A stretch of 26,319 bases of DNA from a virus (Duplodnaviria > Caudoviricetes): the IMG/VR virus record IMGVR_UViG_3300032266_000279, positions 1 to 26,319 of that record. The stretch is one strand, 5' to 3'. A program made the translations under genes and the position numbers. Of the stretch, positions 1,860-12,090 are shown in pieces (position 1 is the first letter of the stretch; each line of letters opens with the position of its first letter). The notes beneath the pieces were generated by a model. The model saw only the letters and a program-made list of their open reading frames with translations, did no database searches and was not told the origin of the DNA.

Positions 1860-2041
1860 TTGGGTCGGCCTCCTTTGAGACCATTGCGTTTACTGGCGTT
1901 TTTGCGTGCTTGGCTTGATAGCCGAGCCTTGAGTGTTTCGAGTTGGTCTTGGAGGTTGACAGCGTGCCCCCTGGCAGTGTCTCTCTCCATTTTTAGTGTC
2001 CGCACCTGCTCGTGCATTTTGTCGATTTGCTCGTAGGTCAT
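1832..2041 (-). CDS. Small coiled-coil protein with a basic 'NGLKGGRPKK' tail (possible DNA binding)
   Basis: Heptad-like N-terminal half. The C-terminal KGGRP motif is common in small phage proteins. Confidence 0.75.
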   Translation of the reverse strand: MTYEQIDKMHEQVRTLKMERDTARGHAVNLQDQLETLKARLSSQARKNASKRNGLKGGRPKKNKTNATN

Positions 2042-2217
2042 GCCCAGTACCTTGCACGTTTAGCCGCAGTGATGGCTACCAGCACCGCGCCGATGAGCGG
2101 GCAGAGAAGGATGGCCGCCTCGGGTTGGCCTTGGTGAGCGTGGATGCCAATAATATCGGCGACTGCGATGGCTAGGCATGCCCAGCCAATTGGGAGTGTG
2201 TGTCGTTTGGTGTTCAT
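2038..2217 (-). CDS. Small membrane protein (59 aa, two hydrophobic segments)
   Basis: Not in the ORF track. MNTKRHTLPIGWACLAIAVADIIGIHAHQGQPEAAILLCPLIGAVLVAITAAKRARYWA*. It has an A/C-rich leader and an ATGA overlap with the next gene. Confidence 0.7.
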   Translation of the reverse strand: MNTKRHTLPIGWACLAIAVADIIGIHAHQGQPEAAILLCPLIGAVLVAITAAKRARYWA

Positions 2218-2247
2218 TGTTTTTGTTTTTGTTTGGTTGTTGCTGAC

Positions 2248-2301
2248 GGCCTCGTCAGTGTCCGCGCGACGGACAGACGCGCCCCGGAGGGCGTTTCGGC
2301 C
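2248..2301 (-). ncRNA. Hammerhead ribozyme, type II
   Basis: Minus strand GGCC-GAAA-CGCCC-UCCG-GGGCGC-GUC/UGUCCG-UCGCG-CGGACA-CUGACGA-GGCC. It shows the GAAA and CUGANGA core, a GUC cleavage triplet, 6-bp stem I, bulged stem III and open stem II (GGCC/GGCC, G10.1-C11.1). It is intergenic. Confidence 0.88.
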
Positions 2302-2552
2302 TAACGGACACTATAAAAGTGTCCGCTCTCAGTCGCAGCTGCATATTCGAGCACCTCGACAACTTTGACGGCACCGCTTTTTGTAGTGACCGCCACGCGG
2401 CACACGTCTGTCTCGTGTGATCCGCCGCCGATTACCATGCGGCTTTCTTTTGCGTAATCTTTTTTGGTGATTTTGCGGTCAGCGCAAATCATCCATTCTC
2501 CGTTAATGTTACGAAAAGTTGCAGTGATTGAGGAGGATGTCGTGGCTTTCAT
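2301..2552 (-). CDS. Hypothetical early protein (83 aa, MKATTSSSITATFRNINGEW...)
   Basis: ORF track 2301..2621. ATG 2552 is preferred: it is downstream of the promoter and has an A/C-rich leader. Confidence 0.75.
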   Translation of the reverse strand: MKATTSSSITATFRNINGEWMICADRKITKKDYAKESRMVIGGGSHETDVCRVAVTTKSGAVKVVEVLEYAAATESGHFYSVR

Positions 2553-2589
2553 TGGATTGTTTTGTTTTAGGTTTCGTCTGACGTTGTAA

Positions 2590-2632
2590 AACCTAGCCGA
2601 CGCCCCACGCGACGTAAACACTTTTTTTCAAT
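2590..2632 (-). promoter_or_regulatory. Sigma70-like early promoter with A-tract UP element
   Basis: Minus strand TTGAAAAAAAGTG-TTTACG (2618-2613)-17 nt-TAGGTT (2595-2590). Confidence 0.6.
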
Positions 2633-10542: not shown

Positions 10543-10708
10543 GCCAAGCCCGCTCCCACCGAATTTCGTCCGTTGCCGATGGATGCGCCCCGATAGGACA
10601 CAGCGGAACGTCATCAAAAAGGCTACCAGTAGCCTTGCAGCCCTCGCGCTGGGAGCAAGTCTGGCAGACGCGGAAACGCTTGTCAATCAGCCAGCGAGGG
10701 AGGGTCAT
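10484..10708 (-). CDS. Small Cys-rich protein (74 aa)
   Basis: RFRVCQTC...C...CPIGAH. ATGA overlap with the upstream gene. Confidence 0.65.
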   Translation of the reverse strand: MTLPRWLIDKRFRVCQTCSQREGCKATGSLFDDVPLCPIGAHPSATDEIRWERAWPQHAQAVSGCCDSALHAPQ

Positions 10709-12090
10709 CGGTCTTCGTAAGTGATGGTGTAGGTAATAGTGGATTCAGCTGATCTTTGGAGAAATGGACCGTCATAACTCTTTGAAGCAGTAGACGTCGC
10801 TATTAATAACCCGTCATTAGCTGTAATTGTTGTCTTAAAATCAAACGGGTATAACATAAATCCCGCAGCAAATGGGACAAAAAACTCTGACATTTCTTCA
10901 AAGCCTGTTTGATAAGGAAAATACAACTGGTAAGGCATTACATCTTTACCCTTGTATATTTTTGAAATTGCGTCAATTAACTGCCCACATCCTTTTTGTT
11001 TGTTGTTAAAATATTCAAAAAGAAAAAACTGATCATAAAATTGATATAAAAATTGATCGGGAATTGGTAATGGATCTGGAAGTGGAGTCGGCGGGAATTT
11101 CTCCCAGTCATTAAATAAAAAATTTCCAAATTTATCAACTTGCTTCAGAGTGTCAGACTTTTTAATTGACCTTCCATAAGTGTCGTAATAAAGCCCGCCA
11201 TCTGGCGTGTACACGTCTGATATTTTTCTTCCAGAAAAAACACTAGGATTTCCGTAAATAATTGCTGTTCCAGATGTGTTGTCTGGAGCACCTGGAACAC
11301 TGTAAGTGGTCGACGTAGAGCATTGTATGTGATCAGTAGAATTTTGAGGATTTGTTAAATTAAAATTGATACCACACTGCGCTTGGCCTCCACAATTTAT
11401 TCCGCGCCCCCCGGCAATTTTTAAAAAATCTGTCCATTTTTTCTTTGTCTCAAATAATGTTGGAACAGTTCGTGGGTCTGCTTCTGGCTCAGGATCATTG
11501 GGCGCTTTTGGAAAATAAACAGGCATTGCCGCTGGCAAATATTGTGCTAGCCAATTTTGATAATCATCTTGAGATTCAAAAATAGTTTCATTTGGACTCA
11601 GAACAAATTGTTCTTTGTCTAAATTTGGAGGAATGTCAGTTTCTTTGTCTTTAAAATAATAAGGTCCCGTAATAGGTAAATTATTTAAAAGTGGAATAAA
11701 TGGTTGGCGAGAACGTAATTGGTCAATTAGCGGAACTGCCTCAGCAACGTCATATGGTTGATCTGCGTAATATTCTGGCGGAGGCGCATATCCTTGCCCT
11801 TGTCCCATACTCGGAAATGGGTATCCCGCCGAAAAATCCCGCCGGATAGCAGTATCTATATTTTTATGAGCCCAGCCTTCTGCTAATGTTGCTTTTTTTG
11901 CTGCTAAAAGTTTTGGGCAACTTAACTCTCGTTTTGTAAAATCAGTGAAAATCTCGCCTGCTTTCCATGTGCCAGCGTAGTTGTCCTCAATCCGTCGATC
12001 TGAAGTGGTCATGGTGGCTTTATAATCAAGGCTCACTTCAACCTTAAATTTTTTAAACAACAATCTGCCCTGACAGTTTTGCGCGTTCAT
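10705..12090 (-). CDS. AT-rich hypothetical protein in the tail-tip region (461 aa)
   Basis: Long ORF with ATGA overlaps on both sides. Pro/Tyr/Phe-rich and visibly lower GC than its neighbours. Confidence 0.8.
   Translation of the reverse strand: MNAQNCQGRLLFKKFKVEVSLDYKATMTTSDRRIEDNYAGTWKAGEIFTDFTKRELSCPKLLAAKKATLAEGWAHKNIDTAIRRDFSAGYPFPSMGQGQGYAPPPEYYADQPYDVAEAVPLIDQLRSRQPFIPLLNNLPITGPYYFKDKETDIPPNLDKEQFVLSPNETIFESQDDYQNWLAQYLPAAMPVYFPKAPNDPEPEADPRTVPTLFETKKKWTDFLKIAGGRGINCGGQAQCGINFNLTNPQNSTDHIQCSTSTTYSVPGAPDNTSGTAIIYGNPSVFSGRKISDVYTPDGGLYYDTYGRSIKKSDTLKQVDKFGNFLFNDWEKFPPTPLPDPLPIPDQFLYQFYDQFFLFEYFNNKQKGCGQLIDAISKIYKGKDVMPYQLYFPYQTGFEEMSEFFVPFAAGFMLYPFDFKTTITANDGLLIATSTASKSYDGPFLQRSAESTITYTITYEDR

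Follow-up and report, generated by a model that had tools for sequence, protein, structure and literature searches.

Type II hammerhead ribozymes have been reported from prophages, where several copies flank single small genes and where processing of the message into gene-length pieces has been proposed (Perreault et al. 2011, PMC3088659). According to that paper, in most described members the 3' tail and loop I join in a pseudoknot that activates the ribozyme. In Desulfovibrio, three type II hammerheads close to phage-like genes were shown to cut (PMC8782182), and a 2019 review states that the purpose of phage hammerheads needs more work to define (PMC6765202). The ribozyme analysed here shares with the prophage-array hammerheads of Rfam family RF02276 an open stem II, closed stems I and III, the CUGANGA and GAAA core and the GUC site. 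It differs from the majority of RF02276 members in having a 5-nt loop I, a 4-bp stem II and a tail that pairs with the catalytic core. A text search of PMC3088659 and its readable supplements, in which the alignment is partly covered and gaps could hide a motif, gave no such hairpin. Nor did the passages searched of the open-access literature, a scope that leaves out subscription papers, describe phage hammerheads with a conserved tail directed against the core.

According to one idea, finished circles of viroid and satellite RNAs hold their hammerheads inactive. RiboJ is a synthetic element and its hairpin is separate from the core. Transient inactive folds in viroid and satellite hammerheads, and selection for co-transcriptional action, are reported in the sections consulted of PMC1636495 and PMC3185496. 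The core bases are trappable in inactive pairings there as here, but in viroids and satellites local traps appear to be selected against or to occur in replicating circular RNA, whereas here a local trap is selected for in the mRNA of DNA phages. RiboJ consists of an engineered hammerhead and a downstream hairpin, and its cleavage is described as giving a uniform 5' end (PMC8942793). It too has a hairpin ahead of the ribosome-binding region; the hairpin described here, in contrast, uses the core and competes with catalysis. In the ribozyme of hepatitis delta virus (HDV), the inhibitory folds Alt1-Alt3, in which a flank pairs with the ribozyme, are documented by compensatory mutants (PMC4615214). 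In both cases the level of activity depends on a conserved flank whose pairing catches the RNA in an inactive fold while it is being transcribed, although for the present ribozyme the lowering of activity is a prediction. HDV is an animal satellite RNA with a ribozyme of another class, whose main inhibitor lies upstream and is made first, whereas here a 5-nt downstream tail is made last. What marks the HDV Alt folds, a mutually exclusive pairing conserved with compensatory change, is found here as well.

The window, that is, the whole stretch of 26,319 nt that was analysed, belongs to a single phage contig, the recognisable genes of which lie on the minus strand: terminase, portal, head and tail genes and an endolysin come first, and small ORFs follow, with an exonuclease and a RecT-like gene after them. 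The hammerhead and its hairpin sit within the small-ORF stretch, in the phage early region, where the order on the minus strand is predicted promoter (2618-2590), 83-aa ORF, hammerhead, A/C-rich leader and 59-aa ORF with its start at 2217 (Table 1). No PHROG family was found for the 106-aa form of the frame of the 83-aa ORF, and an ORF start resembling that of the 83-aa ORF comes after a hammerhead in one relative (L131). The promoter-like block at 2578-2618, which was not called in a sigma-70 scan of the window, has TAGGTT as its -10 element followed by CGUCAG, at 2583-2578 on the minus strand, near the inferred transcription start. The block is conserved in the window, L131-L134 and L168, and the first gene after it varies among these relatives, which suggests that the cassettes are shuffled. 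TAGGTT and AACCTA form an inverted repeat around this CGUCAG, at 2578-2618, possibly an operator. The gene order is similar in the Verrucomicrobia phage P8625, whose terminase is 22% identical (E 2e-22), and this gives a faint indication of the host group; a search of P8625 for hammerheads gave none. Among the tail genes, a 461-aa ORF at 10705-12090 (minus) has no PHROG family and lies in a stretch of low G+C (39% vs about 53%).

Table 1. Features at the hammerhead locus, in window coordinates.
Feature	Position	Strand	Basis or remark
Predicted early promoter, TTTACG, 17 nt, TAGGTT	2578..2618	-	Conserved in four close relatives (L131-L134)
Upstream 83-aa ORF	2301..2552	-	A2302 and the opening G of stem II belong to its UAG stop (2303-2301)
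Type II hammerhead, short-loop-I subtype, 4-bp stem II, no pseudoknot	2248..2302	-	Match to Rfam RF02276
Stem II, 5' strand, GGCC	2298..2301	-	Sequence; the stem covaries in homologues
Stem-loop III	2277..2294	-	Extra CG at about 2278-2281, absent from relatives (alignments); expected from the energies to weaken the active fold
GUC triplet	2275..2278	-	Predicted cleavage between 2276 and 2275 (hammerhead consensus)
Stem-loop I, 6 bp, loop UCGCG	2259..2275	-	U at 1.7 is the inferred tertiary partner of A2302
Stem II, 3' strand, GGCC	2248..2251	-	Contributes three bases to the loop of the lock hairpin and its last base to the pairing there
Lock hairpin, CUGACG-AGGC-CGUCAG	2243..2258	-	Core C3-G8 with the last stem II base and a 5-nt tail
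Leader, 25 nt, A/C-rich, unstructured	2218..2242	-	Without Shine-Dalgarno; unpaired in folds; opening energy 0.8 kcal/mol
Downstream 59-aa ORF	2038..2217	-	No PHROG family; followed by small ORFs, exonuclease and RecT-like gene

The match to RF02276 (Hammerhead_II) runs from 2301 to 2241 on the minus strand with 33.4 bits (E 1.1e-4), short of the gathering score of 37; at the gathering threshold there is no Rfam match, and the Rfam profiles show no aptamer-like domain. A descriptor search of the window returned one hammerhead, this copy, in which the CUGANGA core, GAAA and NUH are present in type II order. In a hand-picked alignment of 25 rows, one of them a non-hammerhead (L233), stems I and III are loop-closed and stem II is open, 96.9% of cells are paired and 10 of 14 pairs are changed on both sides. 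The search for a pseudoknot between loop I and the 3' tail was negative, the 5-nt loop having no complement in the tail. GUC is present in 157 of 159 hairpin-bearing homologues, a figure largely imposed by the search patterns. These patterns fix neither U1.7, kept in 157 of the 159, nor the A before stem II, kept in 158, and the retention of both fits the loop contact as summarised in PMC11875169.

The initial annotation had described CGUCAG, directly 3' of the ribozyme, as pairing with the catalytic CUGACG in a 6-bp hairpin with a 4-nt loop. The hairpin is confirmed, with six Watson-Crick pairs, and is read from 2258 to 2243 on the minus strand, a strand that had been omitted. Its position needs a small correction, since GUCAG lies outside the ribozyme while the first C (2248) is the last base of stem II. 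The mutual exclusion with the 4-bp stem II and the core holds, as the hairpin occupies C3-G8, the CUGACGA core and the end of stem II. In the 3' cleavage product the hairpin is the lowest predicted fold (-17.4 kcal/mol with stem I, z -3.4). A single copy of the 16-letter hairpin pattern is present in the window, and none of 100 shuffles contains it; it was derived from the match itself, and the comparative test is therefore the real one.

The subtype was sampled in two scans of viral contigs with patterns ending at or before stem II, which gave at least 128 and at least 133 loci. Among the matches listed, to which all counts in this paragraph refer, the descriptor retained 236 distinct hammerheads, 148 with a short loop I and a 4-bp stem II, 80 with a long loop I and 8 others. 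Loci selected for UCAG (the covariation, bacterial-genome and U7-A scans) were excluded from these frequencies, and the U7-A scan was also excluded from the covariation counts. UCAG stands at the window's offset in 22 of the 148 short-loop hammerheads, where it is the commonest tetramer (the next has 7), against a background of 9 in 3700 positions farther downstream (0.24%). It is found in other registers in the same subtype, 16 times with a 3-nt loop and three times with a 5-nt loop. In the long-loop, pseudoknot subtype it is found at this offset in 0 of 80 and elsewhere in the first 16 nt in 3. A test free of register gave core-paired tails in 63 of 148, compared with 38 for swapped tails and 154/740 for shuffles. 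With the three registers removed, the remaining 107 of 148 (about 70%) show no excess core pairing (24 vs 24 in controls), and neither does the long-loop subtype. Further hidden registers of the tail were considered and rejected, none exceeding the controls.

Five of the six pairs of the hairpin face invariant core bases, and covariation is possible at one pair only, between the variable core base N7 and the tail. In a scan with UCAG fixed and both N7 and its partner free, 54 distinct hammerheads from 54 of 121 loci had U-A (29), C-G (22), U-G (2) or U-U (1). When all sets are pooled, the 82 distinct hammerheads among the matches listed have C-G in 44, U-A in 34, U-G in 3, U-U in 1 and C-A in 0 (Fisher p 3e-9 to 2e-14 after collapse to 42-63 sequence clusters). 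Thus the variable base of CUGA-C-GA covaries with the downstream strand, and does so in many phages that are not related to one another, a check that had been proposed with the initial annotation. The descriptor rejected 67 of the 121 loci of the covariation scan, 17 of 28 from bacterial genomes and 1 of 14 from the U7 non-A scan, and it also misses copies with bulged stems, of which there are five among the close relatives. Across the whole collection, C7 with a non-G partner is present in two contigs, which have one sequence. U7 faces a base other than A in 14 contigs, the G wobble accounting for 12 of them and U for 2, compared with an estimated 230 or so contigs with U7-A. Paralogues within one phage contig switch both bases together (L526, L549, L545), which controls for ancestry and base composition. 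Among the matches listed, AG comes after each of the 12 stem II 3' strands that read GGUC, and the register with the 5-nt loop covaries in 3 of 3. In the 25-row alignment the N7 pair has 10 double changes and one break, in the non-hammerhead row. The stems of the active fold covary in the same rows as this pair, and U1.7 and the A before stem II are kept; both folds are therefore under selection. Near-identical ribozymes with C7-A or U7-G were also seen (L606, L607, L610), as expected of intermediates between U-A and C-G.

A loss of complementarity in related phages had been named as an observation that would count against the hairpin. Gathering of related phages via the exonuclease gave 62 loci, 30 of them with hammerheads (28 distinct), and the core-pairing tail is kept in 27 of the 28, of which 21 have this register and six a shifted 7-bp helix on GACGAG(G); the remaining one has a broken tail. 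On this comparative evidence the hairpin is conserved and selected. A first pattern for close homologues gave two matches, neither of them a hammerhead, and was abandoned. Pairing of the tail with an upstream element, either CUGA at about 2333 or loop I through UGCGA, was also rejected; it occurs in the window's fold only, and the upstream flanks of the relatives are unrelated coding sequence. In L133 the hammerhead has apparently been cleanly deleted between two AGGCC direct repeats (L133:2585-2600), and the stop codon, tail and leader remain. CGUCAG heads the promoter-proximal leader, with no core nearby, in the window, L131-L134 and L168, and within the window's clade it may be kept partly by cassette copying. 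In the small sample of four promoter-like leaders near U7-type ribozymes, NUCAG was found in none.

Energies were computed with nearest-neighbour, equilibrium models that leave out tertiary, core and loop contacts, and the true balance between the folds is closer than the figures. In these models the locked fold has the lower energy of the two in 79 of 82 ribozymes, the median difference from the active secondary structure being -2.8 kcal/mol, whereas among hairpin-less ribozymes the active fold is the predicted lowest in 81 of 113. The first ribozyme of L131 has its active fold slightly below the locked one. The predicted barriers are about 10 kcal/mol from the active side and about 12 kcal/mol out of the locked state. 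During synthesis stem II is finished five bases ahead of the hairpin, and as the tail is added the median probability of stem II is 0.95-0.99 up to +3 nt, 0.77 at +4 and 0.06 at +5 (88 clusters). Extension of the hairpin into stem I by a seventh Watson-Crick pair is rarer than expected (6 of 88 clusters vs 18.4, p 3e-4), so that the strength of the hairpin looks capped. An apparent correspondence between the strength of stem II and that of the hairpin (OR 7.1, p 0.001) fell to p 0.07 once flanking G+C was modelled, and a pause-like motif that would lengthen the time before closure is not enriched (7/94 vs 29/108 clusters); both were rejected.

The hairpin is switch-like in anatomy, as far as sequence comparison goes. 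We tentatively propose that the tail acts constitutively as a kinetic attenuator, active first and then locked, that sets the fraction cut for each cassette. We infer all of the kinetic steps. The hammerhead would fold first and could cut, and within seconds of synthesis the hairpin would close over the core, in cut and uncut messages alike. Putative tertiary contacts would keep the active fold in place for a time in which some of the molecules could cut, and the tail would thereby determine what proportion of the transcripts is processed at this gene boundary. Cutting would leave a product that opens with two stacked hairpins and has an accessible ribosome-binding region after them. In three arrays (L479, L549, L551), with 8-11 hammerheads per about 6 kb, locked, unlocked and pseudoknot types are mixed, which suggests that the lock would tune each small early gene separately; hairpin-bearing ribozymes have no clear preference for a position in the array. 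Of the switch originally suggested, with cleavage confined to a short co-transcriptional window or dependent on a ribosome or bound factor, the first element agrees with the folding snapshots, while an input-dependent switch finds no specific support in the data.

A role in the product only fits the data nearly as well as the kinetic lock, although we think it somewhat unlikely. Cutting would then be complete, and the hairpin would later release the 5' piece, block re-ligation and provide a paired 5' end and an insulated start, making the element a natural counterpart of RiboJ. The core and loop contacts left out of the energies could let the active fold win, in which case the hairpin would form post-cleavage only. 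In the 3' product the CUGA of the core is paired with a median probability of 1.00, compared with 0.36 without the hairpin, and stem I is not invaded in the folding models. The start codon lies less than 15 nt from the hairpin in 2 of 94 clusters, compared with 20 of 108 at the same place in clusters without it (medians 23 vs 21 nt, p 0.07). As start codons keep clear of it, the hairpin probably persists while the message is translated, without being opened by initiating ribosomes. The start region also opens more easily in hairpin-bearing products (median 5.0 vs 6.2 kcal/mol, p 0.004), and a 5'-hydroxyl is described as slowing end-dependent decay in the part consulted of 10.1101/2020.07.22.216051. 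Against this reading, the median cost in opening energy of keeping the tail unpaired is only 0.24 kcal/mol (more than 1 kcal/mol in 28 of 94) and the effect is reversed in this copy (0.81 vs 0.40), for which reason we rejected an insulator effect as such. Products joined by 4 bp should also part unaided, and the locked fold is predicted to win in the uncut precursor too. A link to leaders without Shine-Dalgarno, apparent in raw figures (39 vs 19), was gone at cluster level (15/94 vs 17/108). Stabilisation of a circular mRNA by the lock was likewise set aside: neighbouring stem II strands are often compatible, yet Perreault et al. detected no circles, according to the text of PMC3088659.

Under a third explanation, which we consider improbable, translation of the upstream gene would gate cleavage. 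A ribosome ending at the upstream stop would cover the tertiary A, the 5' strand of stem II and GAAA, and the hairpin would close and leave the message uncut. The overlap of the upstream UAG with A2302 and the first G of stem II is what this would predict, and the barrier of about 12 kcal/mol out of the locked state would be enough for hysteresis. No more than 8 nt separate the upstream stop from stem II in 60 of 74 hairpin-bearing cases, but the same adjacency is seen in 75 of 100 ribozymes that lack the hairpin and in 62 of 70 of the pseudoknot subtype. Exact overlap of stop and stem II is at most weakly in excess (12/41 vs 12/78 clusters), and tight gene packing explains the adjacency. If this gate were real, cutting would report on translation of the upstream gene. 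It is correspondingly doubtful that the ribozymes form a widespread class of one-shot translation-sensing switches, in which termination on a stop codon built into stem II would unfold the ribozyme and the tail would latch it off, with a small early gene cut out of the polycistron only when its neighbour is untranslated.

That a protein or an initiating downstream ribosome binds the tail and frees the core is highly unlikely. CGUCAG does head promoter-proximal leaders that have no core, as a recognised motif might, but the tail varies with the core base and shifts between registers, the four promoter-like leaders near U7-type ribozymes, a small sample, have no NUCAG, and start codons lie a median of 23 nt past the hairpin. 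The spacing of the start codons makes the downstream ribosome unlikely as a trigger, and nothing in the data indicates a bound factor. Chance, or a by-product of copying between cassette leaders that left a functionless hairpin, is scarcely credible: six-bp hairpins are common, the close relatives are one clade and CGUCAG persists without a ribozyme in L133, but the enrichment at one offset among the matches listed, its absence from the pseudoknot subtype, whose tail has another job, the near-absence of mismatched combinations collection-wide and the compensatory paralogues stand against it, and the covariation has already largely refuted it.

The copy in the window has a feature that the initial annotation overlooked, an extra CG in stem III (2278-2281, minus), which predicts a third, inactive fold. 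It is absent from 12 metagenome hammerheads with the same stem I, out of a set of 13 loci of which one is without GAAA. The predicted energies for this copy are -23.0 kcal/mol for the active fold, -29.8 for the locked fold and -31.4 for the third fold, in which CGUC pairs with GACG of the core, and the active fold lies 8.4 kcal/mol above the lowest. The pair A15.1-U16.1 has a probability of 0.00 in this copy, compared with 0.68-0.84 in L131 and L261. In the uncut precursor with 60 nt of upstream sequence the hairpin is at 0.01-0.03 only. As the extra CG frees CGUC to pair with the core, the window's ribozyme is predicted to be a poor cutter and may be crippled; alternatively, the extra CG may be an assembly variant. 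The family-level finding is independent of the state of this copy. At the end of the upstream ORF there is also a hairpin at 2305-2326 (minus), in which seven bases of stem I together with C3 are repeated in both orientations. It was not seen in L131-L134, and it could compete with stem I.

A second conserved fold that masks the core suggests that the hammerheads are tuned or timed and not simply constitutive. Trimming hammerheads at stem II for assays would remove a part that is under selection. The tail could also be put to use in synthetic constructs, as a tiny natural element with which to adjust cleavage, and the question of purpose becomes testable by means of a 70-nt RNA, the removal of 5 nt and a single natural compensatory pair.

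In bacterial genomes, hairpin-bearing hammerheads were found in 11 of 28 pattern matches, mostly in metagenome bins, with records labelled Actinomycetota, Acidobacteriota, Chloroflexi, Polyangiaceae, Paracoccaceae and others. Among cultured phages, no hairpin-bearing copy was found in three records (L603-L605), and blastn matches were partial only. One of these records, Streptomyces phage Janus (L604, NC_054660.1), has seven unannotated type II hammerheads with a long loop I at about 46300-49200. They sit between small terminal genes, and related Streptomyces phages share a match.
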